Shown here: in pieces, positions 19,218 to 47,561 of the stretch
Layout of the letters: the number at the start of each line of letters is the position of its first letter
Numbering within the stretch: the first letter of the stretch is position 1
Origin: Patescibacteria group bacterium
GTDB lineage: Bacteria; Patescibacteriota; Patescibacteriia; SG8-24; DYFX01
DNA: 64,000 nucleotides
Assembly: GCA_041659045.1 (NCBI GenBank)
Contig: JBAZZB010000001.1
Location: 454,111-518,110, forward strand
Direction of reading: 5' to 3'
The notes under the pieces: model-generated
What the model was told of the DNA's origin: nothing
Databases searched by the model: none
The model's input: the letters and a program-made list of their open reading frames with translations, nothing else
Made by a program: the position numbers and the translations under genes

Positions 19218-20669
19218 CTATTCGACACGTCGCGAGATGTCGTCGATGGCTTTGAGTACGCGCTTCTCGGTTTCACGCACCGAGGCACCACTCTGCAAAT
19301 CATGGAAGGCATCACTCACGTTCCGTCGGCTGGAACGAATGGCCTTTTGCACTTTCAAGCGAAGTCTTCTGACAGAACCGAGGAGATAGAGGATAACCAG
19401 AGACAGTACGGTCGTAGCGACACCGGCGGCAAACGGCACCCAGAAGCCTTGGGGCGCGGTTCGCTCCGTACGCTGCTCGACAACCTTCGGTGCTTCCATC
19501 ACGACCATTGGCGTAACTTTCGGCATCGCAGGCGCCTCAGTCACCGTAAACGGAACCATCGCCTCGCGAGAATGGCCAGCCCGATCAAAAGCTCTGACGG
19601 ACAGCGTGTGCGTGCCTGCCGAAAGTTGCGACACCTCATAGGTTGACGTCGCGGTGCCAAACCATTCAACGGACTGCCCTCCGTCAATGCGCACCTCGTA
19701 TCGGGCAATACCAGAGCCACGATCCGTCGCATCAAACAGGAAACGCGCGGCGTCCGACGGTTGAGCTCTCTGAATTTCGTGAATTTCGAAATGTTCCGGA
19801 TCTTCCGTATCGATCTGAACGCGATAATGCGTTGTCGCACCCCACTCCCCACCTTTTCTAAATTGCGCGTGGAAATACCACACACCGTCCTCCAAATCCT
19901 TCACCGTTCTTGAAGCAATGGCTGGCGTGTAACTTACTGTCGGTGAGGCATTTGGAATAACCCCGACGAGCAAACGCACAGCATCAACGCCGGTCGGCAC
20001 CGACCAGGCAAAAGCCGCATCTCGTGACGCATACCACGCATCAGAATCAGGATGCGTACTGGAAACAATTCTTGGCGCCGGCACACTGTTACCCGTCGGC
20101 ACTTCTGGCGCAGTTGTGCCCACGAGCGTAAAACTCGCGCCGAGGAGTCCGGAGGCAACTTCCGTTCCTTGGCCGTCATTGGCCAATACGGACCCTGTCG
20201 AGAAAGACGCTTTCGCCGTACCTTCAGACTTCACGCGAAAGGAAACGGATAAAAGTTTCCCGCTGGACCCTTGAAAGCCAGGATTCAACACAATACCCTC
20301 GAAACCAATCGTTCCGGCCGTGTTTGAAAAGCTTGGATCTTGAATCCAAAGCCCAAAAACAGAACCACTTTTTGAAAGCGATACGACTTCAAGTTTGTCC
20401 GGTGGAAAGATGATACCTCCTGATGCGGCGTTGACCGCGCGATCCGTGCTCGAGACGTAGACGTTTACTGTAAAGGCGCTGCCGACAGCGTGAGAGCCAG
20501 ACGACGGCGAAAGGTACAGAGACGCCGCCTCGGCAGAGGCTGGCACCGCAACAAAAAACAAAATCGCCACCGCGATAGCTCGCGTTTTTTGAAAAAATGA
20601 GCGATACGTTTTGCCGTGGTTTACGACAAACGTATCAAAAAAACGTCGTCTCAAGTTCATTGCGTTCAA
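19218..20669 (-). CDS. Cohesin-like domain cell-surface protein with C-terminal TM anchor
   Basis: Signal peptide, cohesin-like beta-sandwich segment (LYLSPSSGSHAVGSAFTVNVYVSS...GIIFPPDKLEVVSL), Ig-like middle and a C-terminal hydrophobic helix plus basic tail. Paralog of the next gene. Confidence 0.55.
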   Translation of the reverse strand: MNAMNLRRRFFDTFVVNHGKTYRSFFQKTRAIAVAILFFVAVPASAEAASLYLSPSSGSHAVGSAFTVNVYVSSTDRAVNAASGGIIFPPDKLEVVSLSKSGSVFGLWIQDPSFSNTAGTIGFEGIVLNPGFQGSSGKLLSVSFRVKSEGTAKASFSTGSVLANDGQGTEVASGLLGASFTLVGTTAPEVPTGNSVPAPRIVSSTHPDSDAWYASRDAAFAWSVPTGVDAVRLLVGVIPNASPTVSYTPAIASRTVKDLEDGVWYFHAQFRKGGEWGATTHYRVQIDTEDPEHFEIHEIQRAQPSDAARFLFDATDRGSGIARYEVRIDGGQSVEWFGTATSTYEVSQLSAGTHTLSVRAFDRAGHSREAMVPFTVTEAPAMPKVTPMVVMEAPKVVEQRTERTAPQGFWVPFAAGVATTVLSLVILYLLGSVRRLRLKVQKAIRSSRRNVSDAFHDLQSGASVRETEKRVLKAIDDISRRVE

Positions 20670-20676
20670 CAGGTTC

Positions 20677-21558
20677 TTACGAACCTTGTTTCCTCCGGGA
20701 AAGCACGCGAGAGAGAGTTCGACCGAGCAAGAACCCTATCAACACCATCATAGCAAGCGTCGCGTATTTTTGGTATGACGACTGCTTCTTTGCCGCGAAC
20801 ACCGTTGCAACGCGCGCATGCCCTTTCTTATCGACGGCCTTAACAGAAATATCCTCGTTCACGTTTTGGTTTTGCAAAAGATACGGACTTTCGGCTGTCA
20901 CGTACGCTCCTCCACCTTCGCGCACTTCATAATGATCAATTCCGGAGGCCTTGTCTTGCGTCGCGAAAACTAGGAAGTACTTGCCCTCAAACATGTTCGG
21001 ATCGCGAGACACGACCGGAACAAACGTTTCAGGCGCGTCAAGATCGGCTTTCTCGTACGTGACATCGCCTTCACCCACAACCTGCTCCGCGACCTCAAGA
21101 ATCAGCGGCCGCGCGTTCGCGCTTGCCTGCGTTCCTTTTCCGTCGTGAAGCAAGATTTGCTCTTCTTGCACCTGGAAAAACGCCACACCAGCACGTAGAG
21201 GACGCACGACAACGGAAAAAAGAAAACTTTTTTCCCCAACGTGACCTCCAGGAATAATGCCGGAGAATGCAATTTTTCCGGTACCAGCCTGAGGTCGTTG
21301 TATCCAAAATGTTACTGTTGAATTGCCGTCTCGTATAGCCTCAACATCAAAAGACTCCGCTGGAAAAACAAGCGTTCCCTCAACAGCGTTCACGTCTTCG
21401 TTTTCCGTATCAAGAAACACGTCAACGACATACGAACTTCCGACATGAAATGGCGCGGTTTCAGTTTCTGCAAAAATACTCGCCGCAGAAACCGCGCCCG
21501 CGCGCATAAGGAACATCGTCGCAAGCAATGTCAGTGAAATTTTTTTGAAAAGCTGCAT
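20677..21558 (-). CDS. Cohesin-like domain cell-surface protein with C-terminal TM anchor (paralog)
   Basis: Signal peptide, then the same cohesin-like pattern (HVGSSYVVDVFLDTENEDVNAVEGTLVFPAESFDVEAI) and a C-terminal TM plus basic tail. Confidence 0.55.
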   Translation of the reverse strand: MQLFKKISLTLLATMFLMRAGAVSAASIFAETETAPFHVGSSYVVDVFLDTENEDVNAVEGTLVFPAESFDVEAIRDGNSTVTFWIQRPQAGTGKIAFSGIIPGGHVGEKSFLFSVVVRPLRAGVAFFQVQEEQILLHDGKGTQASANARPLILEVAEQVVGEGDVTYEKADLDAPETFVPVVSRDPNMFEGKYFLVFATQDKASGIDHYEVREGGGAYVTAESPYLLQNQNVNEDISVKAVDKKGHARVATVFAAKKQSSYQKYATLAMMVLIGFLLGRTLSRVLSRRKQGS

Positions 21559-21566
21559 ACGACAGA

Positions 21567-22619
21567 TTAGCCAGACCAGTGATACGCCATAATACTAAAG
21601 TCGACAAGGTTCACTTTCCCGTCGCCATTCAATTGTTCTTTCTCAACCACTCGGAATTCAGCAGAAAGCTCGCGCTGATACCAATACGCAACGATCGAGA
21701 AGTCGACAAGGTTCACCTTCCCATCGCCGTTTACGTCGCCCTTCACACCAACAACATCAGGCAGCGCCGTCACGTTCTTCGTTCCAACGACGAATCCTAC
21801 AGTTTTTCCGAACGGGCTCGCCTCCTCCTCCAACGCCGACTTTGCTTGCGTACTATGTGATCCGGCTTCAAGCACGGCCGTATTGAGCGTGTACAAATAC
21901 GCGCCCGTGGCATCGGCATTCACGCTGTAAAAAAGTTCGTTCTCGGAATTCACCGCAAGTGTCACTTCACTATTCGGCGCAGTCCGCCCAAAAATAGCAA
22001 TGTTGTCTCCGCGTTTTACCTCGCTTTTATCTGCAGAGATCGTCGGTGCGATAAAAATTCCACTTACTCTCGTTGTGGCGCCATTCGTAATGTAAACCGG
22101 GAAACTAAACAATGCAGAATGCAGGCCGGTCGCATCTTCACCATAAATACCGAAGGCATAATTCCCCGTCGCCAAACCCGTCAGGCTCACCTCAAAACGG
22201 GCGTCTGGACCAGCAATGGTTGAAACGGCAACCTGACCATCCTTTAAGACAACAACCTTGCTCAACGGATATGCCCTGCCTGAAAAGGTTACCTGCGTAA
22301 CGACGGGAACCGTCGTAGCTCCTCCCCCACCCCCACCTGTTGCACCACCGCCCACGCTCCCGCTTGATGTCGTGCAAAGCGATGTATCAAACGAACAAGA
22401 GGGATCGCATGATAGCGTACCTCCGCCGAATCCCTGCGACTGGCACGATTGTCCGTTGAGATCAGTGACGTCGCACTCTTCATCCCACTCGGTAATCGTA
22501 TTCCCGCAGACGGAAATACGGATTCTCGCTGAGATGGTCGAGGCAGAGGTAACTACCGGAAAAACCACCAGCCACACAGCAAAAATAAGCGCGGAAAATC
22601 TCGCCAAGACACGGCTCAT
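21567..22619 (-). CDS. Dockerin-containing secreted protein
   Basis: C-terminal duplicated type-I dockerin calcium-binding segments GDVNGDGKVNLVDFSIVAYWYQ and LNGDGKVNLVDFSIMAYHW. The N-terminal region has a signal peptide, a Cys-rich segment, a poly-Gly linker and Ig-like beta domains. Confidence 0.7.
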   Translation of the reverse strand: MSRVLARFSALIFAVWLVVFPVVTSASTISARIRISVCGNTITEWDEECDVTDLNGQSCQSQGFGGGTLSCDPSCSFDTSLCTTSSGSVGGGATGGGGGGATTVPVVTQVTFSGRAYPLSKVVVLKDGQVAVSTIAGPDARFEVSLTGLATGNYAFGIYGEDATGLHSALFSFPVYITNGATTRVSGIFIAPTISADKSEVKRGDNIAIFGRTAPNSEVTLAVNSENELFYSVNADATGAYLYTLNTAVLEAGSHSTQAKSALEEEASPFGKTVGFVVGTKNVTALPDVVGVKGDVNGDGKVNLVDFSIVAYWYQRELSAEFRVVEKEQLNGDGKVNLVDFSIMAYHWSG

Positions 22620-23239
22620 GATTTCCTCGAAATTGCGAATTCCAATTTGAAGAATTTCTTAAACGCCGCCGCGAGGAGCACGAACCCAATGAATCCGAAT
22701 ACGATGTACGTCCAAGGCCTATAGCGCGCGATCAAGCTTGTGATGCGATAAAATACCGCCTGAAAGATATTTGAGGGCGCAACCGTGAAGTAGAATTTCG
22801 AAGCAGCAGCAACACCGATACTGGCACCGCCCGTCGTGCGAGCTTTCCTCAAAGGGCGCGCTTCAAGAAACGCATAATACTCGCCCGGTTTGGCGTTCAA
22901 AGGCACGCGGAGCGTCATGGTGACCGGCTGAACCTTTCCAGGCTCAAGACTGAACGTCCGCGGCGTAAACGTCACCCAATCGCGACCCGGACGAAGCTGA
23001 GGAACGTTTTCCTGATACTCGATAAAAGCTTCGTACTCCGTAAGTTCATCACCCGTGTTGATTACGGGCAGAGTCGGAAGATCGTAAATCGTTCCAGGCT
23101 TGAGGGGTTCTTCTAGGATGACTTTTCCGAGCCCCACGCCGACTCCAACATTCGCAAAAACAGCGAGTGGGAACGCGAGCGCGGCTACGACCGCCAAGGC
23201 AGCTTTTCGGACAAAAATTTTCCGCATACCAACCTTCAC
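22616..23239 (-). CDS. Hypothetical surface protein with signal peptide and C-terminal TM anchor
   Basis: Signal peptide AALAVVAALAFPLAVFA, a beta-rich middle and a C-terminal helix FGFIGFVLLAAAF plus KKFFK tail. 4-nt overlap with the dockerin gene. Confidence 0.5.
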   Translation of the reverse strand: MKVGMRKIFVRKAALAVVAALAFPLAVFANVGVGVGLGKVILEEPLKPGTIYDLPTLPVINTGDELTEYEAFIEYQENVPQLRPGRDWVTFTPRTFSLEPGKVQPVTMTLRVPLNAKPGEYYAFLEARPLRKARTTGGASIGVAAASKFYFTVAPSNIFQAVFYRITSLIARYRPWTYIVFGFIGFVLLAAAFKKFFKLEFAISRKS

Positions 23240-23254
23240 GGTGAAGTACTCGAA

Positions 23255-23773
23255 TCAGGATGCTGTCGCGGTAACAACAACGTCGACACTTTGCTGTGTG
23301 TAATCTGCAGTTGCCGTTGGAGTCGTAAGAGTCAGGTCGAAACGTGTCGCCGCACCTACGGCCACGTCCGCAACCAAAGCGGTATTCCCCGTGGTCAAAG
23401 CCGTGTAGTTTGTCGGGTTGGATTCACAGGCCGTGAGGCAGAAGGAATGCCTGTACGTTTCTGAACTCGAAGTCGCCCCCAGCGTCCAGCTAGCGGAATC
23501 CGTGCCGGAAATGAAAAAATCTTCGACAACGTTGCCGGTGTTCGTCGCGCTTTGCGTGTCCCACATACCCACTGAAGTCGAGCGTGCAGTGCTCAGACTC
23601 AACGATCCATAGGCAATGCTAGCGTCAGCAGCTGTCAGCGCCACGTTCGTAACCGTGACAGTCGCTGCTACTGTTGCCGCCTGAACCGTCATCGTTGAAA
23701 ACGCCATCAACGAGGAGAACAAAAAGACCGCTGCCATCCAACTCCATCCCACTCTTGTTAGAGTCAAACGCAT
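23255..23773 (-). CDS. Small secreted protein, paralog of the C-terminal module of the giant glycine-rich protein (WxL-like)
   Basis: Start set at MRLTLTRVGWSWMAAVFLFSSLMAFS (signal peptide). The rest aligns nearly residue-for-residue with the last roughly 170 aa of the 1425-aa protein (GMWDTQSATNTGNV..DF.I.GT..A.WTLGAT). The similarity is also visible at nucleotide level. Confidence 0.6.
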   Translation of the reverse strand: MRLTLTRVGWSWMAAVFLFSSLMAFSTMTVQAATVAATVTVTNVALTAADASIAYGSLSLSTARSTSVGMWDTQSATNTGNVVEDFFISGTDSASWTLGATSSSETYRHSFCLTACESNPTNYTALTTGNTALVADVAVGAATRFDLTLTTPTATADYTQQSVDVVVTATAS

Positions 23774-23867
23774 ACGTCTAAGAAAAACATTCGGCCATTT
23801 ATAACTTGCCTCTATGATACCACGATCTTCAAGCGACCGATTGCGAAGATATCCCCAGTTTTCAGCC

Positions 23868-26800
23868 CTAATGCTGTGTCGCAGTGATGACGACGTCGAC
23901 GCTTTGTTGCGTATTGTATGAGGTCGATGTCGGCGTCGAAATATTGAGATCAAAGAGCTGCGCGGCGTCTACGGCGACGTTCGTTACCATCGACGTCTCC
24001 CCCGTCGTCAACGCCGTATAGTTGGTCGGTGCGGTCGTACAGCTCGCCGTGCAGAACGCATGCGCATACTGCTCGCTGCTTGGTGTCGCGCCGAGCGTCC
24101 AGTTAGCCGTGTTCGTTCCGCGAATGGTGAAATCCTCAGCAACGTTTCCGGTATTTGTCGCGCTTTGCGTGTCCCACATACCCGTTGATGTCGAGCGTGT
24201 CTCGCTGGTACCCATGATTCCATAAGCGACCGTGCCATCTCCAACAGTCACCGCGACAATCGTCGCCGGATTGATGGTGATCTGTCCTGATGAGTAGGCG
24301 CTTACGGGAGAGTTTTCACCATCATCGACGACACCGTACACGTAATAGCTTCCTGTCGTGACCCCTGTCGTGTCCCAAGCGCACGTCACACCTGTTCCTT
24401 CAGCGGCGGTGGCACACGGGCCGCTGATCACCGTACCGTCGAGACCGGAGTTATTGGTATCGTAATAGAAAGCCGCCGTCACAACATCATCGGAGTCAGC
24501 CAGGGTATACGTCACGTTGTAGGAATCTCCGACGGTAACGGTGTCGCTTGTGCCATCCGGTTGTGAAACCGAAATCGTTGGCGCAGCGTTGCCTGAAGCG
24601 ACATACGAAAGTTTCACTTTTCCATCAGCGCCGGCACCACCGATCGTACATGTCGATGTCGATGCGGATTCTCCGCCTCCACCTCCACCTCCACCGCTTC
24701 CGCTCGCTGGTGCGTTTCCGTTCGTGGCAATAGCGGACGCGCCATCTCCGCCAATACCTCCGCCCGAGGGGGCCGCCGCTGCCGTTGCTGTCGTCCAGGT
24801 CGTCGCGCCACTCGTACCATTCGCCGCAATGCCGGCGCTTGAACCGCCAGGTCCGCCGTAACCATTCGTGTTGTTGTAACCAACCCCTCCGTCACCGCCG
24901 GATGCGATGTAACTTGGCTCACTCACGCCTCCACTCGACGCACCGCCGCTTCCACCGGCCGGCGGCGTACCCGTTGAGTTTGCGCCGCCCGCGCCGCCTT
25001 TTGCCATCACGGTTGAGGCATCGACAAAATAGCTGTCCTCCCCAGATAATCCAGAAAGACAGGTGCCGCCGAGCCCGCCTCCTCCCGCCACGACGGTGTA
25101 GGTATTTCCAGCAGTGACTGCAACGGTGTTTTTGGAATATCCGCCGCCACCTCCACCACCACCTCCGTCGGAAATAATGCGCTGCTGTCCGCCACCACCA
25201 CCACCGCCGCCCCACACTTCAACATCAACAGACGTCACACCTGTGGGCGCCGTCCATGTGTAGACATAGGTGATTCGTACACGACCAACATAACCGTCTC
25301 CGCCTTTAACAGTGGCGCCTTCGGCCGCGCCGCCGCCGCCGCCGCCAGGACCAATATCCGGAGCCAAACCGTCCGTCGTTCCTGACGTAGCTGTGCCATA
25401 CCCTCCAGGACCACCACCAACGACAGCTACCGCACCAGTCGGTGCCGTGCTCGCATTCGTACCGGCACTCCCCGTACCTGCCGCACTGCCTCCACCTCCA
25501 CCAGCACCCGTCGCGCTGTTCGTACCAGCTCTACCGTTGCCGCCAGTGTAGGTCGTGTCGCCAACACTGGAACCGCCGGCGCCACCTGCGCCACCTGATC
25601 CTCCAGTGCCAGAGCCTCCGCTTCCCACATTTGGATTGCCGCCACTTCCGCCTTTTGCCATTACTGTCGAGGCGTCAATAAAATAGCTGTCTCCGCCAGC
25701 ATTACCGGCGCTTGAGGCGACGCCTGTTCCACCAGCACCAACAACAACGGTGTAGTCATTTCCAGGTGTGACGGAAATATTGGATTTCTTTGCGTAAGCA
25801 CCGCCTCCGCCGCCTCCGCCGCCATCATTCGCGGAGTCATTGTTACCGCCGCCGGCTCCGCCACCACCCCACGCCTCGACGTTCACGGCCGTGACGCCTG
25901 CAGGAGCCGTCCATGTTGCGGAACTCGTATAAACAACCGAACCCGTCGCATACGTATCAACCGTATCCGAAGAATCCGCAATATATGTGATAGCGACTTT
26001 TCCATCAGCGCCTTGACCTCCAATCGAACACGTTGTTGTTGAAAGCGCATCGGCTGCGCCGCCACCGCCGCCGCCAGAACCAAAATTACTCAAAGGCGGA
26101 TCCCCCGGCACACCGTCTGCGTCGCCGCCGTCACCGCCAATACCGCCCCCGTGCGGCGGTTTTGAAGCGTCGTCAATTGCCCATGTTGTGGGTCCATTCG
26201 TACCGTTTGCTGCCACGCCCGCGCTTGAGCCGCCAGGGCCGCCTCTGCCATCAGTAGCATTACTGCCCTTACCTCCGTTACCGCCGGAAAATTTTGTATC
26301 ACCAACGCCGGAAGCTGCCGCGCCACCAGCACCACCAGAACCTGGTGTGCCCGTAGAGTTCGGGCCGCCACTACCACCCTTCGCCATCACGGTCGATGTA
26401 TCGATAAAATAACTGTCGTCTCCAGCTACGCCAGTGATACATGTGCCTCCAAGACCACCAGCACCAACACCGACCGCATACGTGTTACCTGGAGTGACTG
26501 AAATGCTAGTTTTTTTGGAATATCCTCCGCCGCCGCCTCCACCTCCGCCGTCGGAAACAATGCGCTGTTGTCCACCGCCACCTCCGCCTCCGCCCCACAC
26601 TTCAACATCAACAGACGTCACGCCCGTCGGTGCCGTCCAGGTATAGATATAGGTAATGCGTACGCGACCAGGCGCACCGTCGCCACCTTGAGCAGTTGCT
26701 CCTTCGCCACTACCTCCGCCTCCGCCGCCAGGACCAATGTCAGGGGCAAGGCCGTTTCCGGCAACCGTAAATCCGTAGCCACCAGGACCACCACCAACCA

Positions 26801-28145
26801 CCGCAGTCGCGCCGGTCACTGTCGCAGCCGTGCCGTTGTTGCCGGCACTTGTCGTTCCCGCACCGCCACCACCTCCTCCTCCAATACCTGTCGTACTGTT
26901 TCTTCCCGCGCCACCAGTACCGCCCGAATACGTAACATCACCAACACTCGAACCACTGGCTCCTCCTGTTCCAGCAGTGCCGGCATCTCCAGTAGACGCT
27001 CCGCCCCCACCGCCACCCTTCGCCATGACCGTCGAAGAATCGATAAAATAGCTGTCGCCACCGGCGTTCCCGGCGCTTGAAGCCACGCCCGTACCTCCCG
27101 CGCCAACGACAACGGTATAGCCGTTTCCCGGTGTAACGGAGATATTCGATTTCTTCGCATACGCACCACCGCCGCCGCCACCACCACTGTCCGCGGAGGC
27201 TTGTGTGTTACCGCCACCTGCGCCACCAGCGCCCCACGCCTCGACGTTCACGGCCGTAACGCCGGTCGGAGCCGTCCATGTCGTCGAACTCGTATAGACA
27301 ACGGAGCCCGTCGTATATCTTTCTTCATAACCGCCCGTAGGTCGAAAACGAACCGCTCCAAGATCTACAGCGAAATCATCTGTTCCGTTTTTTGTTGCCG
27401 TACCGGCCGTGCCATCAGCATTCTCGACACCTTGCGTGTAATAGCTTCCCGGCGAGTTCAGCACGACGACCTCCGAATGTACTTCGATAATACTTGTTGC
27501 TTCGTACATCTGCACCTGCGTCGTCACGCGCGGAATACCTTCCTCGCAGCACTGTGCGAGATCCAAAAAATCCACGACAAAGACGCGATTTGGCGTTGAG
27601 CCAAACGTCTGATACCGAATCTGCGAACCGTTTGAGGAACTCGCGTACAAGTCGGCCCACACGGCGGCGATCAGCGCATTTGGCGTGGCTGCGTCTGGAA
27701 TCACTTGCGTGTTCGTGGAGCTGCCAGGGGTGTCGCCCGTAAAACTGACAAAGCCGTTGGAACTGATCCAGACCGAATCGTAATCGGTACCGTAAAAGGT
27801 AAATGTGAACGGCAGCGTAATCTCGCTGGAAAATTCGTTATCAAATGTTCCAGACGTATCAAACGCCGCAGTCGCTCCCCCATCAAGCGTGTAGGGATCG
27901 TAGGCGATGGTTGATGATTGATAGAAAATCTCAGCCGAGGCTTTCGCTTCGCGTACGTTTGGAAAAAACGGATTGTGACCGAGCCGCGGCCAATCAGAAA
28001 AAATCCAGCTGGTCATGATTGTCAAAACCAGCAGGAAGCGTGACACCTTGGCGGCCTTCTTACATCCAGACCAAAAAACACGCCTACACCAAGCAGCGCG
28101 GCGCGCGACAGAATCCATGTCGATGCGGATGGTCAACGTGCGCAT
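23868..28145 (-). CDS. Giant (1425 aa) glycine-rich repeat cell-surface protein
   Basis: N-terminal TM/signal and a beta domain with PFTFTFYGTDYDSVWISSNGFVSF. Then four repeats of TWTAPxGVTxVxVExWG(G)n...VTPGNxYxVxVGAGG...SYFIDxSTVMAKGG(G)n, organised as two near-identical roughly 467-aa super-repeats. Then an Ig-like domain and a C-terminal module with an NWTL motif. The exact start is uncertain. Confidence 0.75.
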   Translation of the reverse strand: MRTLTIRIDMDSVARRAAWCRRVFWSGCKKAAKVSRFLLVLTIMTSWIFSDWPRLGHNPFFPNVREAKASAEIFYQSSTIAYDPYTLDGGATAAFDTSGTFDNEFSSEITLPFTFTFYGTDYDSVWISSNGFVSFTGDTPGSSTNTQVIPDAATPNALIAAVWADLYASSSNGSQIRYQTFGSTPNRVFVVDFLDLAQCCEEGIPRVTTQVQMYEATSIIEVHSEVVVLNSPGSYYTQGVENADGTAGTATKNGTDDFAVDLGAVRFRPTGGYEERYTTGSVVYTSSTTWTAPTGVTAVNVEAWGAGGAGGGNTQASADSGGGGGGGAYAKKSNISVTPGNGYTVVVGAGGTGVASSAGNAGGDSYFIDSSTVMAKGGGGGGASTGDAGTAGTGGASGSSVGDVTYSGGTGGAGRNSTTGIGGGGGGGAGTTSAGNNGTAATVTGATAVVGGGPGGYGFTVAGNGLAPDIGPGGGGGGSGEGATAQGGDGAPGRVRITYIYTWTAPTGVTSVDVEVWGGGGGGGGQQRIVSDGGGGGGGGGYSKKTSISVTPGNTYAVGVGAGGLGGTCITGVAGDDSYFIDTSTVMAKGGSGGPNSTGTPGSGGAGGAAASGVGDTKFSGGNGGKGSNATDGRGGPGGSSAGVAANGTNGPTTWAIDDASKPPHGGGIGGDGGDADGVPGDPPLSNFGSGGGGGGAADALSTTTCSIGGQGADGKVAITYIADSSDTVDTYATGSVVYTSSATWTAPAGVTAVNVEAWGGGGAGGGNNDSANDGGGGGGGGAYAKKSNISVTPGNDYTVVVGAGGTGVASSAGNAGGDSYFIDASTVMAKGGSGGNPNVGSGGSGTGGSGGAGGAGGSSVGDTTYTGGNGRAGTNSATGAGGGGGSAAGTGSAGTNASTAPTGAVAVVGGGPGGYGTATSGTTDGLAPDIGPGGGGGGAAEGATVKGGDGYVGRVRITYVYTWTAPTGVTSVDVEVWGGGGGGGGQQRIISDGGGGGGGGGYSKNTVAVTAGNTYTVVAGGGGLGGTCLSGLSGEDSYFVDASTVMAKGGAGGANSTGTPPAGGSGGASSGGVSEPSYIASGGDGGVGYNNTNGYGGPGGSSAGIAANGTSGATTWTTATAAAAPSGGGIGGDGASAIATNGNAPASGSGGGGGGGGESASTSTCTIGGAGADGKVKLSYVASGNAAPTISVSQPDGTSDTVTVGDSYNVTYTLADSDDVVTAAFYYDTNNSGLDGTVISGPCATAAEGTGVTCAWDTTGVTTGSYYVYGVVDDGENSPVSAYSSGQITINPATIVAVTVGDGTVAYGIMGTSETRSTSTGMWDTQSATNTGNVAEDFTIRGTNTANWTLGATPSSEQYAHAFCTASCTTAPTNYTALTTGETSMVTNVAVDAAQLFDLNISTPTSTSYNTQQSVDVVITATQH

Positions 28146-28217: not shown

Positions 28218-28817
28218 TTACTGACGAACGTAAGGTGCCAGCTCAGCCGTCACGATAAAACGCTTAAAGGCCGTACCGAGCGGATAGGAAGTTTGCAGCG
28301 TCAAAGTTTTCTTCACGCCATCGCCTTGGGACAACACGCTGAGGTCCTTCGGGGAAACAACTTTCGTGCCCGTTACGACGTACAAAAACGGCGTACCGGA
28401 AGCATTCGTCACCTCGATTTCTTCACCAACGCGAATCGACATGAGCTTCGCGAACACATCTTTGTATGAACCCGGACTCCACACGTAATCGCTGGAGTGA
28501 CCAAAAAAGTAGGCGTTGCCAACTTGTCCCGGCATCGCCGTTCCCGGAAAATGCACGACACCTTTTTCGAGCGCTTGCTGAAAAGATTTCTCGTTACGCG
28601 CCGCTGGCTCGATGACAGGCGCATCGATTCCGAGTCCAGGGATCGCCAAACGCACCGCCAACGTTGAAGAAGACGAGGCGGCAACCGTTTCAATCATAAG
28701 CGTGGCGGAGTCGGGACGATCTCCGTCAACGCGTGCGCGAATCGATGGCCAAGCCATGATAAACACGGACGCGACAAGCGCGATGAAAGGCAGAAGTATA
28801 TGGGCGTGGCGGCGCAT
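28218..28817 (-). CDS. Sortase-fold protein with Ser in place of the catalytic Cys
   Basis: N-terminal TM. LAIPGLGIDAPVIE, HFPGTAMPGQVGNAYFFGHSS (the His motif) and KRFIVTAEL (Arg motif) align with SrtA. The TLxTC motif reads LTLQTSYP, with codon TCC at 28287-28289. The protein contains no Cys at all. Confidence 0.65.
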   Translation of the reverse strand: MRRHAHILLPFIALVASVFIMAWPSIRARVDGDRPDSATLMIETVAASSSSTLAVRLAIPGLGIDAPVIEPAARNEKSFQQALEKGVVHFPGTAMPGQVGNAYFFGHSSDYVWSPGSYKDVFAKLMSIRVGEEIEVTNASGTPFLYVVTGTKVVSPKDLSVLSQGDGVKKTLTLQTSYPLGTAFKRFIVTAELAPYVRQ

Positions 28818-28858: not shown

Positions 28859-29581
28859 TCAAGAACGTTTACGGAGCGACAGGACGACACCGAACGTCAT
28901 CACGACAAGTGCCATCGGAAGCGAAGCGCCTCCGGTGCGCGGAAGCTCGTCAACCGTGTTCGTGTCTCCACCAGGAGGCGTGGTACCGCCGTCCGGAGGC
29001 GTGAGCGGATTGCAGCCGGGGCTAAGCGGATCGCACGTCGCGACATCAGGAGGCGTGATCGGAGCACAATCGGGGCTTCCAACCGGGCAGCTCGGCGGCG
29101 CCGGAGGTTCACAGCTCGTCATGTTGCAGCCACCAGGCGGCGGGGTCGTCGGACCGTCGCAGCCCTGCGAGCATTCCGGAGTTGCAATCGCAACGTCGTC
29201 ATACGTAACAACGCAGGTTGCGGAACCGTTTTCAGCCAAGGTGCCGGAGCAGCCCGGACCGTAAAAACGAGCGTAGTACGGCTGGTGCGATCCCTGAACA
29301 GCGTAGTTGCCCGGGGATACGGCCATCGTGATACCCGGTGCGCCAAAACCAGCCCACGTCGAGAGGGTGGTCATGCCGTCGCCGTAGGTCATAAGAAAGT
29401 TTGCCGGCAAGGCAATACCTCCGTCATCATTGATGACGTTCGTCACAACGTTGATCGTGGCTTGGCTGTTGCCGCCACCGCCCGGACCGGGGCCGGTCGG
29501 GTTATACGAGGCCGCCTGAACGCGGGCAGCGCTCGTAAGAAGCGCCGTCGCAAAGACAAGCGCGAGAAGTGTTTTTCGCAT
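28859..29581 (-). CDS. Secreted Pro/Gly/Cys-rich protein with C-terminal LPRTG sorting signal
   Basis: Signal peptide MRKTLLALVFATALLTSAARVQA. C-terminus ELPRTGGASLPMALVVMTFGVVLSLRKRS, which is LPXTG plus a hydrophobic stretch plus a basic tail. Confidence 0.65.
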   Translation of the reverse strand: MRKTLLALVFATALLTSAARVQAASYNPTGPGPGGGGNSQATINVVTNVINDDGGIALPANFLMTYGDGMTTLSTWAGFGAPGITMAVSPGNYAVQGSHQPYYARFYGPGCSGTLAENGSATCVVTYDDVAIATPECSQGCDGPTTPPPGGCNMTSCEPPAPPSCPVGSPDCAPITPPDVATCDPLSPGCNPLTPPDGGTTPPGGDTNTVDELPRTGGASLPMALVVMTFGVVLSLRKRS

Positions 29582-37781: not shown

Positions 37782-40235
37782 TTAGATAAACCTCAAGCGT
37801 TCGCGAATTTCCGCCTCGACAATCTCACGGTCGCGTCCGTATTTGAGACGCGAGAGCTGCTTGATGGCGGCTGTGATCTTCGTATCGCCTTTTGACAGGC
37901 CAGCCATTGCCATGTTGAAGGGGCGACTTGCCGTGTTGTCGATCAGAATTTTCGCATTGGCCGTATACGCTTCAACGTTCACGAGATCGAACGGTGTGAA
38001 GACCGGTGCAAATTCCTTGCCCAAAAATTCTGCGTCCTCAGTGCCGATACGGAAGGCGACCATCGTACCGACGTTACCAAAGATGGCGTCGCGAATCGTG
38101 GTGTCGCCTTTGGCCGAAATCTGCCCGATATATTGGTGCGCGATAATCAGATCAAGGCCGTACTTACGAGCCTCCGAGAGAATCGTCGCAATCGAGTCGG
38201 TAATAAAGTTCTGGAACTCGTCGATGTAGAGGTAGAAGTCTTTGCGATCCTTGGCGTCCATGTCCGTGCGCGAGAGTGCCGCCATCAAGATCTTGCCGAC
38301 CAAGACCATACCGATCAGGTACGCGTTGATGTCGCCGAGTTTGCCCTTGGAAAGATCGAGCAAGAGAATCTTGCCTTCATCCATCGCTTGGCGAACGTTG
38401 AACGCGCTCTTCTGCTGGCCGATGATCGGGCGAACAATGTCGTTGGTGATGAACGGTGTGAGCTTCGAAGTGATGTACGGCACCATGTTGGCGAGCGACG
38501 CTTCACCGCCGGCCTTCGACGCTTCCTTCAACCAGAAATCTTTCACGACTTGCGTCTTGCATTTCGACAACTTGTAAGCGCGGAAGCGTTCGTCGGAGAG
38601 CACACGCGGAATTTCCATCAAGGTCGAACCGGAAGCCGGATCGTCCATGACAAGAATCATGGCGTTGCGCATATACTGCTCGAACATCGGCCCACCCGTC
38701 GATTTAAGATCGTAGAGCTTGTCGAAAATCTTCAGCATCTCGTTGATGACGAAGGTTTTCTGTTCCGGATATTTTTCGTCGTACTCCAGCAAATTGAGAC
38801 CCATCGGCCGCTCGGTATCGGCCGGCGAGAAATAGATCACATCATCAGCGCGATTCTTCGGCACAAACGACAACGCATCCTGCGCAAAATCTCCGTGCGG
38901 ATCGATCACGCAAACACCTTTGCCAGCTTCAATGTCCTGCTTGACCATCGCCTTCATCATCTCGCTCTTACCAGAACCAGACTTACCGATGATGTACATG
39001 TGGCGACGGCGATCCCCCTGCTTGATGCGTACCGGATGCTCTTGGCCGCGGTACTTCACAACACCCAGAAGAATCCCCTCTTTCGGCAGGTTGGACGGTG
39101 GCGGTGCCTTGCGAGCCGTCAGCCAGCGAATGTTGGGTGTTTCGGTCGAGCTGAGCGGCAGATGCCAGAGACTCGCAAGCTCGTCAGGCGTCAGCACCAT
39201 GCGTCGCTTGTCGTGAAAGATACGCAAAATGAAGTCGCTGACGATGCGGCTTTTTCCTTCGCTGACGCGCTTAAACGCGTTACCGTACTGCGGACTCGAA
39301 AACTGGTTGAACGCACCAATCAAGTTTCCAAGCACGAGTTCGGCGCGTCCTGGCGTCGGCGATGAGGCAACCAAATTCACGTTGGTGTCGAGTCCGAGCT
39401 GGCCGACTTTTTCTTCGATCGACTTCACCATCTGCTCCTCAAGCGGCGACAAACGATATTCTTTGGCTTTTTCACCCGTCTTTTCCTCCTGCGTACCGTG
39501 CTTGATGAGACCTGATCCCTTACGCGCCTGGTCGTACGAGCGGCCTTGCTGCATAAGCGAAGCGATCTTCACCCCCTTCTCACGCCACGTTTTTTTCGCC
39601 GAACGCACAAGAATTTGGATTGCAGCACCATCACCAGTTTCGACTTTCGCGAGCGCATTCGTCAGCGCGTTCAGCGGATCGGTTTCAAGTTTTTTGTAGG
39701 TATGAAGTGGGAAGAAGTTTTCGCGCCCAAACACGAGGTGCGCGCTTGCGATTGTCCCCTTCGGTTGAAACACATTATAGTCGGAAACTTCCTCGATTTG
39801 CGCCAAAGGGTATTGCGCGTGGACTTGCTGTTCGACAAATTCACGAAAACGCTTTGGTGCCGAAATGTAAAACGAAACAAGACCACCTGTCGCCACGATT
39901 TCAAAAGCAATGACATCTCCGCGTCCTGCGAGCCACGCGCGGAGACCCCGCTCTGCCTTCAGGCCGCCAACACTTTTGAAAACACCTTCCGCCACAGCGA
40001 TGATGCCCTGAATTTCCTGGAGCGATTTGTCGTGCTGGCCGCCGTCTTTTTCACCGGATTCTTTCGGCACGGTTATGAGCATGACGACGTTGTCGAAACC
40101 ACGCGCGATTTCAGCTCTGGCCGTCAGGATGCGGCGCACGATTCTGAGCACGATCAAAAACACGAACAGCCCGACCACAAAAGGAACGGCGGGCATGACA
40201 AGCGATACAAGATCGGGAAACTGAAACGGGTTCAT
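37782..40235 (-). CDS. Type IV secretion coupling-protein-like P-loop ATPase (VirD4/TraG/TrwB-like), membrane anchored
   Basis: N-terminal TM helix, Walker A IIGKSGSGKS and motifs VIDPHGDF and YIDEFQNF, typical of T4SS coupling proteins and CPR-type DNA-translocating ATPases. Confidence 0.65.
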   Translation of the reverse strand: MNPFQFPDLVSLVMPAVPFVVGLFVFLIVLRIVRRILTARAEIARGFDNVVMLITVPKESGEKDGGQHDKSLQEIQGIIAVAEGVFKSVGGLKAERGLRAWLAGRGDVIAFEIVATGGLVSFYISAPKRFREFVEQQVHAQYPLAQIEEVSDYNVFQPKGTIASAHLVFGRENFFPLHTYKKLETDPLNALTNALAKVETGDGAAIQILVRSAKKTWREKGVKIASLMQQGRSYDQARKGSGLIKHGTQEEKTGEKAKEYRLSPLEEQMVKSIEEKVGQLGLDTNVNLVASSPTPGRAELVLGNLIGAFNQFSSPQYGNAFKRVSEGKSRIVSDFILRIFHDKRRMVLTPDELASLWHLPLSSTETPNIRWLTARKAPPPSNLPKEGILLGVVKYRGQEHPVRIKQGDRRRHMYIIGKSGSGKSEMMKAMVKQDIEAGKGVCVIDPHGDFAQDALSFVPKNRADDVIYFSPADTERPMGLNLLEYDEKYPEQKTFVINEMLKIFDKLYDLKSTGGPMFEQYMRNAMILVMDDPASGSTLMEIPRVLSDERFRAYKLSKCKTQVVKDFWLKEASKAGGEASLANMVPYITSKLTPFITNDIVRPIIGQQKSAFNVRQAMDEGKILLLDLSKGKLGDINAYLIGMVLVGKILMAALSRTDMDAKDRKDFYLYIDEFQNFITDSIATILSEARKYGLDLIIAHQYIGQISAKGDTTIRDAIFGNVGTMVAFRIGTEDAEFLGKEFAPVFTPFDLVNVEAYTANAKILIDNTASRPFNMAMAGLSKGDTKITAAIKQLSRLKYGRDREIVEAEIRERLRFI

Positions 40236-44065: not shown

Positions 44066-47000
44066 TCATTTTTTGATCAGGTCTTTGAGTTCCTGAAGTT
44101 CCTGACGGAGCTCATCGATCTCTTTCTCCTGCTCGCGCAACTCGCTATCAAGCTCCTTGATGGCGTTGATGCTGATGTAGGTGAAATCGCTCGGATCAAC
44201 CATGTAGATAGCCGTCTTACTGGTATCCGTAGGATTCAGCTTGCGATAATCGGTCCTAACCATGGACGGCGCGATTTTTTGCAACTCCTGCGCGATCACA
44301 CCGACACCCTTATGACCCGCGGGCATTTCACCCAAGCCATTATAGGTGTAGTTCACCGGATTAACCTCGCGAATAACCGAGAGGCCACTGGTGTATGGCG
44401 TAACATCTTTTTTCACGCGACGATCAGACGTCGCCGTCCAGCTGCCGCCACCAGGTTTTGCCGCGCCACCCGAACTGACGTACACACCCCAAGACGTACT
44501 GCCTCCAGAAGCGTGCGCATACACGGCCGTGTTCAACGCCGTGCCGCTCATGGCGTAAAATACGCCGCCGTAGTTTGTAGAGTTAGAGGAGCTCGTCGAT
44601 AAGCCATAGACGCCGTAGTTACCGTACGCAAGATAGACGTTTGATCCTTCAGACTGGTGCGTGAAGTGAGCGCCCGCAATACCTGCAACAGTACTACCTT
44701 CAACACCGTAGGAGTTTGTTCCTTGTCCGTAGATACCTGTCGTACTACCCGTTCCGTACACACCATAGATCGTACCTGTCGATTGAATACCCCAGCCACC
44801 AATCGGCGAAGCGCCGTTGACGCCAAGACTGTTGGTGATTGTCACGCGACCCTGCGCGTAGAGAGCCGTATCAAACGACTGGAAGGCCTGTGCATAGACA
44901 GCTGTGCTACCCGCCGTATTTGCGCCGAAGTAACCACCATACGAGCTACCGGAAGCATTCACACCGATTGAACCGCCGCTTCCCGCAAGCGCCGTACCAC
45001 CAGCGTTCACGACTGCAGCCACGCCAGCGACGGTACCGCGTACCGAAAGCGCCGTATCAAACGAGGAAAAGCCGAGACCTGTGTTGCTAATACCAACATA
45101 GTTGTTGATTTGGCGACCGCGCGCGGCGACAGTATCAAGCGTGTCCACTTCAGCGCCACAATCAACCCATACGCTGTTTTCAAAGCAGCGAAGCTTGTTG
45201 TTGACCGAGTTGTAGTACAGCATGCCGTTCACGCCAGCCGGGTTCGAGCCCATGCTGCCGAGAACGAGTTCGCCACTCACCGTCGTACGGTCAGTCGTCG
45301 CGTTACCAAGCGTCGAGTTGTCAGCAACCCAGAACGTTCCGCCGACCGTCAACGTCGAACCGGGACCGGCGATACCAACGCCTACGCGGTTGTTGGCCGC
45401 ATCGATATACAGGGTGTTCGCGTCAAAGTTCAGGCTGTTCGGCGTCGTGATCGCCGTTCCGGTAATCGTCAGTGTGTCGGCAGCCGCGTTTCCAATCGTC
45501 GTGTTGCCGTTAATCGCGAGGTTCTGCGCAGCAATGACCGTCACACCGTCATCGGTCAATGTCGAGTTTCCGATTGATGAGGCGGTTGTAAACTTCGGAA
45601 TCGCGTTGACAGTACCGCTACCAGTCAGACCAGAAGGAATGCAGTCCCTCCAAGCACCGTTTTCATAGCAGCGGAACTTGTTTGTCGTCGTATTGTAGAA
45701 CATGCGTCCGTTCGTACCTCCAATATCGACTGCGGACAAACCAAGAATCAGCGAAGTACCGTTGCCAATTGTGGCTCCACCAGAGAACGAGGCCGTACCA
45801 GCGACGTGCAACGACGTGAAGTCGCCACCCCAACCCGTGCTCGAACTTCCATAGACACCGGTACCATTGCTGGTGGAGTGTCCGTACACGCCGTAGACGG
45901 GGGAAATACCGTACACGCCCGTGCTCACGCCACTACCCATGATACCCGTCGAACCAGGACCCGAAGCAATGGATGTTATCGCTGTATTGCCGTTGCCGGA
46001 ATTATTAACGGTGATCGTAGGCACCGAAACAGAGTTCGCAGTAAGGACACCGTATACGCGCATGGCGTAGGCCGGGTCCGGGGCGCCGCCAACACCAATC
46101 GTGGCGCCGTCATCCCAAATATTGGAGTTACCAACCGTGTTTCCGTCGGAAGTGAACTTAACAAGTCGGTTGAGCTCACCCACGCCAGCGACGCTTGGCG
46201 GGCAGTTCGTACCGTTCGCGACACAAACCAACTGACCACCTACGGACATCGTACCGGCCGCAACGACGTTACCGTCAGCATCGACGCTGAAGCGGTCAAC
46301 CGACTCAGCCTGCAAAAGGAGAATCTTTCCCGCGGCGAATTGGTCGACGTTACCGTAGATCAGGTTTTCTGCCGGGTTGGTCAGACGGACATCCGGACTA
46401 CCGAACATCGCCATTCCAGCGACATCCACCGTCCCCGCCTCGTCAACGGACAAAACGGTTTCGTTAAGGCCGTTTATCCAGTAGTAGGCGTTTGAGGAGT
46501 TGTCGTTGGTGTCGATGCGGTAGTAGACGGATCCGTCTGTGTAGAGATTGAACGCGTTCTCGCCCGTACCGTAGAGCTCGATACCGCCCACTTGGTTCGC
46601 GAGCGTCATTACGGTTCCACCAAGCGTGTTGTTGAAGGCCGTGGTCGTACTGAACGTCTTGGCTCCGGTAAACGTTTGCGTGTTGTTCAAAAGCGCGACG
46701 TTTGAAGAAAGACGCGCGTCATTCAATGTACCAGTCGTAATGCTGTTCGCGTTGATGTTGCCGACCACAACGCCGTCGATTCCGCCCTGCACGTGGAGCC
46801 TGCCGGGAATGACAATACTGTTCGTAGAAGAAACCGTCATCGAGCTGATGCCGTTCGTGACAAGGTTCATCGTATCGGCCGCACTGCGGTAGATACCCGT
46901 GTTGCTGTCACCGTTGAAGGTAAGCGCCGGGATTGCCGCCGAACCAACCGGAATGAACATCGAACCCGTTTGCAAACCCGCACCGCCGTTGTTGACGATG

Positions 47001-47500
47001 AATCGTTGCACACCACCAGTTGTGATACCAACGTTGTCAGTACCGACCCAATACATACCCGTATTGCTGTCGCCATTGAACGTGTACGACGGAACGGCAG
47101 CAGAGCCGACGGAACCCGAGAGAACACCTTGCGTCGTCAGGTCGCCGGACAGGCCGATCCGGAAACGATCAGCAGCACCCAGTTGGAGCAACAACAAACT
47201 GCCCGCGCTGGAAGTCGCGCCGACATTGCCGTACAGCAAATTCTGACCGGCCGAGTTCAAGACCGGTGTGCTGGCGCCTGCCTGGAAGGTTGCGCCGACT
47301 TTCGCGTCGCCCGTGACGTTGATGCTCGCGTTCTGTGCCGGGCTCGCGATCGGGATGTTCTGAATGACGGCCGGACTGCAGTTTGGAGGCGTACAGGTCG
47401 GGGCGGCGAATTGCGCGTGAGCGGCGCGCGCGCCAAAAGCCAAAGCGACAAAGGCTACGAGCGAAACGAAAATCTTGCGGTCGGTCGTGGCGATGCGCAT
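44066..47500 (-). CDS. Secreted tail-fibre-like protein with C-terminal intramolecular chaperone (peptidase S74) domain and terminal coiled coil
   Basis: Signal peptide at MRIATTDRKIFVSLVAFVALAFGARAAHA (start ATG 47498-47500). Long Gly/Ser/Thr/Asn-rich beta-rich body. A twice-repeated NxxxNKxRC(Y/F)ENxxWxDC motif. C-terminal SDRRVKKDV...GVGVIAQELQKIAPSMV matches the autoproteolytic chaperone domain of phage tail spikes/endosialidases. Ends with a heptad-like REQEKEIDELRQELQELKDLIKK. Confidence 0.7.
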   Translation of the reverse strand: MRIATTDRKIFVSLVAFVALAFGARAAHAQFAAPTCTPPNCSPAVIQNIPIASPAQNASINVTGDAKVGATFQAGASTPVLNSAGQNLLYGNVGATSSAGSLLLLQLGAADRFRIGLSGDLTTQGVLSGSVGSAAVPSYTFNGDSNTGMYWVGTDNVGITTGGVQRFIVNNGGAGLQTGSMFIPVGSAAIPALTFNGDSNTGIYRSAADTMNLVTNGISSMTVSSTNSIVIPGRLHVQGGIDGVVVGNINANSITTGTLNDARLSSNVALLNNTQTFTGAKTFSTTTAFNNTLGGTVMTLANQVGGIELYGTGENAFNLYTDGSVYYRIDTNDNSSNAYYWINGLNETVLSVDEAGTVDVAGMAMFGSPDVRLTNPAENLIYGNVDQFAAGKILLLQAESVDRFSVDADGNVVAAGTMSVGGQLVCVANGTNCPPSVAGVGELNRLVKFTSDGNTVGNSNIWDDGATIGVGGAPDPAYAMRVYGVLTANSVSVPTITVNNSGNGNTAITSIASGPGSTGIMGSGVSTGVYGISPVYGVYGHSTSNGTGVYGSSSTGWGGDFTSLHVAGTASFSGGATIGNGTSLILGLSAVDIGGTNGRMFYNTTTNKFRCYENGAWRDCIPSGLTGSGTVNAIPKFTTASSIGNSTLTDDGVTVIAAQNLAINGNTTIGNAAADTLTITGTAITTPNSLNFDANTLYIDAANNRVGVGIAGPGSTLTVGGTFWVADNSTLGNATTDRTTVSGELVLGSMGSNPAGVNGMLYYNSVNNKLRCFENSVWVDCGAEVDTLDTVAARGRQINNYVGISNTGLGFSSFDTALSVRGTVAGVAAVVNAGGTALAGSGGSIGVNASGSSYGGYFGANTAGSTAVYAQAFQSFDTALYAQGRVTITNSLGVNGASPIGGWGIQSTGTIYGVYGTGSTTGIYGQGTNSYGVEGSTVAGIAGAHFTHQSEGSNVYLAYGNYGVYGLSTSSSNSTNYGGVFYAMSGTALNTAVYAHASGGSTSWGVYVSSGGAAKPGGGSWTATSDRRVKKDVTPYTSGLSVIREVNPVNYTYNGLGEMPAGHKGVGVIAQELQKIAPSMVRTDYRKLNPTDTSKTAIYMVDPSDFTYISINAIKELDSELREQEKEIDELRQELQELKDLIKK

Positions 47501-47561
47501 AAGGCGTAATGGTTGATGAGACCAGTATACCTTTTCCGCTTGCATTCCCCATTGGGGATAA

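Follow-up and report, generated by a model that had tools for sequence, protein, structure and literature searches.

Why should the gene for a giant surface protein be followed by a small gene whose product repeats the giant's own last domain? The question is raised by a locus in a Patescibacteria group bacterium (GenBank assembly GCA_041659045.1, contig JBAZZB010000001.1, positions 454,111 to 518,110 of the forward strand), from which a stretch of 64,000 nucleotides was analysed; this whole stretch is referred to as the window and positions are counted from its first letter. Two open reading frames (ORFs) on the minus strand are concerned, a giant ORF of 1425 aa and, after a gap of 94 bp, a small ORF of 172 aa that begins with the ATG at 23773. 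Most likely the free copy helps to build, or to attach, a fibre that carries the giant. The locus as a whole probably encodes a surface fibre or adhesin complex held together by donor-strand complementation and assembled without an usher, in a monoderm member of the Candidate Phyla Radiation (CPR, Patescibacteria). The parts of the two proteins are as follows.

23868 to 28145, minus strand: giant surface protein of 1425 aa, proposed tip adhesin (ORF; Pfam Gly_rich_2, E=8e-56, four stretches)
27918 to 28007, minus strand: leader motif of the giant, WIFSDWPRLGHNPFFPNVREAKA (aa 47-76), after a hydrophobic helix; a motif common to other long proteins of this kind in CPR
23871 to 24257, minus strand: C-terminal module of the giant (aa 1297-1425), starting VAVTVGDG, pilin-like, without an N-terminal donor strand (alignment)
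23255 to 23773, minus strand: small secreted protein of 172 aa, proposed fibre subunit (ORF; family alignment A1, the profile of 41 small-family members; AlphaFold2, AF2; Foldseek)
23678 to 23773, minus strand: predicted signal peptide of the small protein (aa 1-32, AxA-type cleavage site VQA/A; AF2 helix 8-22, site position kept in A1)
23645 to 23677, minus strand: N-terminal extension ATVAATVTVTN (aa 33-43), proposed donor strand (conservation, difference between short and long forms, AF2)
23258 to 23644, minus strand: pilin-like beta domain (aa 44-172) with NxGNxxE, WTL, FC...C, PTNYTALTT and the C-terminal strand QQSVDVVVTA (A1, AF2, Foldseek)

The start of the small gene can be drawn in more than one way. 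A mechanical ORF list stretches it to a TTG at 23953 (23255-23953), which makes it overlap the 3' end of the giant gene, and the NCBI start is Met13, which gives 160 aa; the N-terminus of the 172-aa version (MRL.L..VGWSWMAAVFLF) is kept in close homologues, and the mature protein is the same under every start.

Relationship of the two copies

The small protein aligns with the last 130-150 or so residues of the giant at 58-64% amino-acid identity. By BLASTP the match covers giant residues 1279-1423 with 58% identity over 153 aa (E=7e-51), and the core of the module reaches 64% over 125 aa; the hidden Markov model (HMM) of the family also matches the giant's C-terminal module, up to the final residue, with E=7e-59. 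At the nucleotide level a codon alignment of 143 codons gives 66% identity, with 69% at the first, 83% at the second and 46% at the third codon position. The same codon is used at only 44 of the 88 identical residues and the longest exact nucleotide match between the copies, over GMWDTQSAT, is 27 nt. Because identity at third codon positions is as low as 46% and only half of the identical residues share a codon, the small ORF and the giant's C-terminal module are, on sequence comparison, old paralogues and not the result of a recent duplication.

A preliminary description of this DNA, made from its letters, had taken the small ORF for a recent duplicate that matches the giant's end nearly residue for residue. 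The paralogy that it described stands, the near identity and the recent date do not; codon-position identities and the pattern of identities across the family (below) both speak against the latter. The motifs that it quoted (GMWDTQSATNTGNV, WTLGAT, YTALTTG and QQSVDVV) are indeed all found in the small ORF and in the giant's module, and each copy has a single (S/N)WTL (SWTL and NWTL), the W96 and L98 of which are invariant in the family alignment. It had also pointed to plus-strand antisense ORFs at 23418-23612 and 24022-24225 with near-identical products. These ORFs do exist, with products that are 68% identical over 53 aa, a similarity that arises because that of the sense strand is mirrored. 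The concern that both copies might be artefacts of one assembly can be laid aside, as the pair recurs in independent assemblies: the exact small protein is present in NCBI (on a contig of a metagenome-assembled genome, MAG), JGI and Logan assemblies (P0001), and an independent Minisyncoccota MAG, L005, has the same arrangement of a 1435-aa protein and a small gene.

Short and long forms of the family

Close homologues of the small protein number 86; almost all are 143-203 aa long, come from Patescibacteria and have no Pfam domain. When A1 was searched against a library of representatives at 50% identity, 1658 clusters were matched at E<=1e-3 and 893 at 1e-10. Among the best 150 matches there are two architectures only. 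The first is a standalone protein of about 160-190 aa that is matched from the start of the profile, the second a large protein (about 65 proteins, 266-1581 aa) in which the module always comes last and the match begins at about profile position 24-38; these are referred to as short and long forms. A scan of GTDB species genomes yielded 80 loci, which include Levy-, Woese-, Roizman-, Davies-, Collier- and Shapirobacteria, groups of Paceibacterota/Parcubacteria, WWE3, WS6/Dojkabacteria and others.

The difference in where the match begins is due to a single element. In the standalone consensus the signal peptide is followed by a near-invariant ATVAATVTVQN (ATVAATVTVTN in the window) and then by the domain, which starts at (I/V)SVSVSDG, whereas in the long proteins the module opens directly at (V/I)SVSVSDG behind a short variable linker. 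Scored over ten profile positions, the N-terminal strand is a feature of 80 of 85 short but of only 2 of 62 long ORFs; the five short exceptions are fragments or else long forms that are truncated. No other part of the short forms is as well conserved: the strand has a mean top-residue frequency of 0.83 compared with 0.65 for the domain, and the corresponding positions in long forms reach a mean of 0.33. Conservation is high, too, in the C-terminal strand SVDVTVQAV, with values of 0.73 for the short and 0.63 for the long forms. In 59 of 60 long forms only 0-5 residues follow the end of the module. The two copies are not equivalent, the conserved N-terminal strand being found only on the standalone protein.

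Mean identity within the module is 51% between short forms, 40% between long forms and 42% between short and long forms. For 55 of 62 long forms the nearest neighbour is another long form and for 74 of 79 short forms it is another short form; therefore the split between short and long forms is ancient and predates the diversification of these lineages. From the same identities the standalone protein would be, if anything, the constant element and the large proteins the variable ones. Short and long forms of the same locus share on average 48% identity, the higher value for such cognate pairs suggesting that they co-evolve, and the window pair with 64% is closer still. If its own orthologue in L005 is set aside, each of the two window copies has the other as its closest relative, which points to some homogenisation or secondary replacement; as the same cross-similarities are seen with L005, any such homogenisation predates the divergence of the window and L005.

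The long form of the window consists of an N-terminal transmembrane segment or leader, an N-terminal domain, four Gly_rich_2 stretches, an Ig-like (immunoglobulin-like) stalk and the C-terminal module. Its leader motif is of the form W[IL]F[ST]GWPxIWxNPxxPPxIxEAxA, which is found in 16 of 60 long forms (L007, L024, L025, L034, L046, L048, L057, L061, L073 and others) and may be a specialised signal or signal-anchor, or a processing site.

A few of the scanned loci are irregular. In L083 (1687-2739) a 350-aa ORF carries the strand-bearing module at its N-terminus with 214 further residues behind it, and in L082 (1398-1965) the small gene is split over two ORFs; these odd standalone genes could be frameshifts, assembly errors or true variants. 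Many third-party annotation (TPA) MAG records titled 'uncultured Gammaproteobacteria', 'Pseudomonadales' or 'Clostridia' carry a cassette of CPR type; probably their taxonomic labels are wrong and the cassette does not truly occur outside the CPR in these cases (L006, L008, L010, L012, L033-L035, L048, L051, L052, L058, L059, L068-L070, L083).

Predicted fold of the small protein

Searches of Pfam and NCBIfam assign no family to the small protein and only Gly_rich_2 to the giant (Pfam, E<=0.1). Among 41 members of the small family there is, even at E<=10, no Pfam match to WxL, Fimbrial or Peptidase_M73/TasA, and weak matches to Enas occur in two members. Searches of PDB sequences with the small protein and with the A1 profile gave chance-level matches only, as did those with A2, the alignment of the neighbouring 207-aa family that is discussed below; links to solved structures are therefore at the level of the fold only.

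With the family alignment as input, AF2 models the small protein as a beta-sandwich with a mean predicted local distance difference test score (pLDDT) of 79. Residues 33-39 of the N-terminal extension have a pLDDT below 50 and are assigned no strand (the block 31-40 averages 42), as is expected of a strand that is unstructured in the monomer since it is donated to another subunit. When the model was compared with the PDB by Foldseek, 30 of the top 50 matches were donor-strand pilins or the pilin domains of tip adhesins. These include 1n12, which is PapE without its N-terminal extension bound to a PapK peptide (probability 0.98), as well as FimA, FimG, PapA, CsuA/B, CfaB, CS17 and the pilin domains of PapG, CsuE and CupB6; an archaeal bundling pilus (7ueg) and TLP-1a are also among them. 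The link that these models suggest between the small protein and pilins is a weak one at fold level.

The 207-aa neighbour

Directly downstream of the small gene lies a third gene that bears on how such a subunit might be handled.

22616 to 23239, minus strand: 207-aa protein made up of a signal peptide, a single PapD-like Ig domain and helices at the C-terminus, among them a transmembrane helix; proposed membrane-anchored chaperone or anchor (AF2, Foldseek, HHalign)

The family of this protein has 562 homologues, three of which are named 'P pilus assembly chaperone PapD' by JGI. In the A2 alignment the mature N-terminus has an invariant GVG..GK and a near-invariant Val35 (consensus VGVGVGxGK), and further motifs are NTGDE, PGDYFAYLEA and SIGVAAAxKLYFTVAPAN. 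Sub-threshold Pfam matches to PapD_N were found in 11 of 35 members; the same 35 gave no Pfam match to DUF916 or DUF3324 at E<=1. The AF2 model (pLDDT 85.5) has a single Ig-like domain between a signal peptide and two C-terminal helices, and its fold is similar to that of fimbrial chaperones. Foldseek returned 75 PDB matches at E<=1e-3, mostly to the PapD-like superfamily including MSP/ASH domains, with chaperones at E values from 4e-5 to 6e-4 (CfaA at 3.8e-5, FaeE, DraB, CupB2, CsuC, FimC, PapD and Caf1M). Also matched, at E of about 5e-4 and ranked below the fimbrial chaperones, is the Enterococcus faecium WxLIP, in the free state (9i1y) as well as in complex with a long WxL protein (9i25_C).

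Profile comparison points in the same direction. HHalign aligned A2 with FimC/SfmC/YadV/YraI over 123 columns at E=1.7e-4, with the signal-peptide cleavage sites aligned, and the invariant Lys39 falls on the invariant Arg of the chaperones (R44 of pre-FimC, which is mature Arg8). The last strand of the family contains a further lysine that is near-invariant, Lys148 (KLYFTVAP, where chaperones have RIKLFYRP). In PapD and FimC, Arg8 and Lys112 grip the bound subunit by its C-terminal carboxylate, and the strict C-terminal position of the module would fit a carboxylate clamp of the Arg8 type.

A different role for the 207-aa protein can be drawn from the Pam pili of CPR, described in Candidatus Mycosynbacter amalyticus as donor-strand filaments that were resolved by cryo-electron microscopy (PDB 25PZ, 25QA) and that have membrane-anchored PapD-like chaperones, a strand-less tip, PamT, and no usher or trans-envelope machine (bioRxiv 10.64898/2026.03.03.709456). 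The 207-aa protein could be a terminal anchor like PamR that donates its own N-terminal strand. A chaperone is preferred because HHalign places VGVGVGLGK on the A1 strand and Arg8 region of the chaperones; an additional anchoring role is possible.

A conserved cassette

The small protein, the large protein and the 207-aa type of protein belong to a cassette of five families that is, judging from its genes, conserved across the CPR. It comprises a variable large protein (291-1592 aa), the small protein, a protein of about 205 aa with a signal peptide, an Ig-like domain and a transmembrane helix, a Cys-rich dockerin-like protein and a cohesin-like protein. In the window the last two families are represented by the following genes.

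21567 to 22619, minus strand: secreted Cys-rich (RISVCGN..EECD) protein of 350 aa with bacterial Ig domains and a C-terminal dockerin (Pfam Dockerin_1, 1e-6; Big_6)
20677 to 21558, minus strand: cohesin-like/Ig surface protein of 293 aa with a C-terminal transmembrane helix (BLASTP to the 483-aa paralogue, 7.6e-15; weak NCBIfam match of OmpL47 type)
19218 to 20669, minus strand: cohesin-like protein of 483 aa with Ig domains and a C-terminal transmembrane helix (Pfam Cohesin, 2e-4; Big_7)

WS6 and WWE3 genomes keep the gene order of the window (large, small, about 205 aa, Cys-rich/dockerin-like, cohesin-like membrane protein). Counted over 79 non-redundant loci, a long form is encoded upstream, on the same strand and no more than 1.5 kb away, in 48 of 68 loci and within 3 kb in 8 more, a gene of the 207-aa type lies within 150 bp downstream in 68 of 76 (within 3 kb in 7 more), and dockerin-like and cohesin-like genes lie downstream in 61 and 57 of 69 loci respectively. 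Each locus has one standalone gene and typically one long form, directly beside the cassette; within the 64 kb of the window there is a single long form. Cys-rich (RISVCGDG..EECD) dockerin-like and cohesin-like genes were also seen at L001 (11146-12755) and L003 (10718-12428). A reasonable guess is that these two families would form a cohesin-dockerin scaffold on the cell surface that is tied to the fibre.

A proposed fibre and its alternatives

Taken together these patterns can be explained if the small protein is a polymerising or adaptor subunit that has both a donor strand and an acceptor groove. Cleavage of the signal peptide would leave a mature N-terminus that is a beta-strand of about 11 residues, ATVAATVTVTN, in front of a pilin-like Ig domain whose groove is unfilled. 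The giant would be the distal tip, its variable N-terminal domains (glycine-rich and tail-fibre-like) carrying out the binding and its extreme C-terminus forming a pilin-like domain without a donor strand, which therefore could only accept the strand of the next subunit. The 207-aa protein would act as a single-domain chaperone of PapD type, held in the membrane by its C-terminal helix, that caps the groove of newly secreted subunits; candidates for the strand that enters the groove are IGVAAASKFYFTV and/or VGVGVGLGK. Pfam found no usher among the eight cassette proteins and the conserved cassette is made up of the five described families only. As the cassette offers neither an usher nor any other anchor, the 207-aa protein probably also holds the base of the fibre. 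The small protein may either form a long polymer or be a single adaptor between tip and anchor. The preliminary description had thought of an anchoring or oligomerisation module, and a module for assembly is still the best reading of the domain that the two paralogues share.

Several observations weigh against such a fibre. The pilin-fold matches of the small protein are weak, with a best E of 0.022 (range 0.02-0.3) and template modelling scores (TM) of 0.3-0.5, and unrelated beta-sandwiches are also listed; its 41 family members match no Pfam pilin family at E<=10, and when the small family was compared with 11 E. coli fimbrial subunits by HHalign, nothing but the signal peptides could be aligned. 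That AF2 leaves the N-terminus of a monomer unstructured does not point specifically to strand donation. The HHalign probability for the chaperone match is just 49%, and the 207-aa protein has one Ig domain where canonical chaperones need two, the second being absent and transmembrane helices standing in its place. In 12 of 68 loci there is no long form within 3 kb. Strand insertion and polymerisation are steps that we infer, as we do the length of the polymer and the order of assembly.

The most serious alternative, which we regard as possible at best, is a complex without a polymer that resembles those encoded by the WxL clusters of Firmicutes. The module would bind or dock to the wall non-covalently and the 207-aa protein, as a WxLIP-like tether, would insert a strand into it, with one small and one large protein in each complex. 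In Firmicutes a WxL cluster contains a small WxL protein, a large one that carries the WxL domain at its C-terminus and a WxLIP (DUF916-DUF3324-transmembrane), a make-up found in 98 of 179 clusters, and the WxLIP is an Ig-like transmembrane protein that is predicted to insert a strand into WxL (PMC10599100). The three-part logic is the same here, and so is the C-terminal place of the module on the large proteins (host-binding in the WxL case); the match of the 207-aa model to the solved WxLIP structures, the presence of one W-T-L in each copy and the one standalone gene per locus would also fit. A relation to WxL domains had been suggested in the preliminary description from the W-T-L motif, and it is the logic of the cluster and not membership of the sequence family that bears this out. 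Neither WxL in the 41 small-family members nor DUF916 or DUF3324 in the 35 members of the 207-aa family gave an HMM match, only one W-x-L motif is present where two define the domain, WxLIP is built of two Ig domains and fimbrial chaperones outrank it as structural matches. WxL proteins are moreover described as peptidoglycan binders and not as strand-swapping subunits, and a WxL-like complex leaves the strand of the standalone protein, its most conserved element, without explanation. The two explanations overlap, in that a 'fibre' of one subunit is the limit case of the proposed strand-swapping fibre.

It is rather improbable that the module is instead a C-terminal tag for secretion or attachment, comparable to the C-terminal domain of the type IX secretion system (T9SS), that is read by the 207-aa protein, with the small protein as minimal cargo or regulator. 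The position of the module at the extreme C-terminus of very diverse large proteins would fit such a tag, as would a dedicated membrane protein encoded next door. Sorting domains would be expected on many scattered cargos, yet there is typically one long form and it stands beside the cassette, as in the window; the standalone protein is more conserved than the long modules and has a strand of its own, and the fold matches are to pilins and not to sorting domains.

That the giant's tail was recently duplicated in this lineage to give a free competitor or cap is very improbable, for while the window copies are unusually alike and mutual closest relatives outside the L005 orthologues, their third codon positions have diverged, the pair already exists in L005, and the standalone form is ancestral, CPR-wide and systematically distinct from the long form by its N-terminal strand.

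Other genes of the window

Upstream of the giant gene there are two further genes for surface proteins or their processing.

28218 to 28817, minus strand: homologue of sortases, encoded just upstream of the giant gene, in which Ser takes the place of the catalytic Cys (Pfam Sortase, 1.7e-24)
28859 to 29581, minus strand: LPRTG surface protein of 240 aa that heads the run of same-strand genes (C-terminal ELPRTGG, hydrophobic tail, RKRS; weak SpaA_2 match)

The TLQTS of the sortase homologue aligns with TLVTC of the class C sortase 8t28, the serine being encoded by TCC at 28287-28289, and the homologue in L007 has LQTC. The exchange of Ser for Cys could mean that the enzyme is inactive, that it is a variant with a Ser nucleophile, or that there is a one-base sequencing error. 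By its sequence the 240-aa LPRTG protein is a likely sortase substrate. Attachment of the giant by the sortase was considered and rejected: the giant ends in the module and not in LPXTG, and the sortase is not a conserved member of the cassette, being found near it in one other locus only, L007.

The rest of the window is ordinary chromosome with genes for DnaK, CysS, DnaX, a DEAD-box helicase and a P-type ATPase. Among these housekeeping genes is one for an 817-aa coupling ATPase like TraG/VirD4/HerA (TrwB_AAD_bind, TraG-D_C; 37782-40235, minus strand). A second large surface-type protein, of 1191 aa (44066-47641, minus strand), has a Peptidase_S74 domain (endosialidase/tail-fibre intramolecular chaperone) and resembles a phage tail fibre.

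Significance

Bacteria of the CPR are mostly uncultured episymbionts that need to attach to a host, and their giant surface proteins are largely unexplained. If the proposed fibre exists, a cassette of five genes would explain how many giant and variable CPR proteins are mounted, namely as tips of a strand-swapping fibre with a minimal membrane-anchored chaperone. A simple sequence rule would then tell a tip from a subunit, the former having a C-terminal module without the ATVAATVTVQN strand and the latter a module with it. The principle of the Pam pilus would be extended to a second and more widespread family, and the WxL clusters of lactobacilli, enterococci and Listeria, which are poorly understood, may work in a related way.

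A more far-reaching possibility, to be taken as a tentative suggestion that may well be wrong, is that the cassette encodes a distinct, CPR-wide, usher-less donor-strand-exchange pilus in which a one-domain membrane protein of PapD type is chaperone, platform and anchor at once and the giant tips are interchangeable, and which is continuous with both WxL clusters and chaperone-usher pili. Were this continuity true, chaperone-assisted strand exchange would predate the usher and be a general means of adhesin display for monoderms.

Comparison with known systems

The cassette has much in common with the chaperone-usher pili of Gram-negative bacteria (Pap, Fim, Csu, CFA/I). These too have a single-domain subunit with a conserved N-terminal extension, a tip made of one or more binding domains and a C-terminal pilin domain without the extension, and a PapD-like chaperone, on whose Arg8 a basic residue of the putative chaperone of the cassette falls, with all genes in one operon, and they provide the best structural matches for both the small and the 207-aa protein. 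The cassette differs in that there is no outer membrane, the putative chaperone is membrane-anchored and has one Ig domain, no sequence similarity to pilins was detected, the proposed tips reach about 1600 aa, and there are conserved dockerin-like and cohesin-like partners.

Fibres of TasA, archaeal bundling pilus and Bacillus Ena type are likewise donor-strand-type fibres of cells without an outer membrane, and two of this kind, 7ueg and TLP-1a, are among the Foldseek matches of the small protein. They rank below the chaperone-usher pilins, however, the family has no Peptidase_M73/TasA match, and a PapD-like chaperone is missing from these systems.

No account of this particular cassette came to light in searches of the literature. 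It can also be compared with the Pam pilus as that has been described. Both come from CPR, appear to follow a donor-strand logic and have a membrane PapD-like chaperone and a strand-less tip in one operon, and in both conservation is highest in the strand that is, or here would be, donated and in the site that binds it. The pilins PamA and PamB are two-domain proteins of 39-55 kDa in which the linker between the domains is the donor strand, and they are reported mainly from Saccharimonadia and Microgenomatia (bioRxiv 10.64898/2026.03.03.709456). In the cassette, by contrast, the subunit is a single domain of about 14 kDa with its strand at the N-terminus, and in the long forms no conserved strand precedes the module. 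There are two beta domains in PamC and in PamD as against the one of the 207-aa protein, no anchor like PamR was recognised among the cassette genes, and the cassette occurs in lineages of Microgenomates, Parcubacteria, WWE3 and WS6 type.

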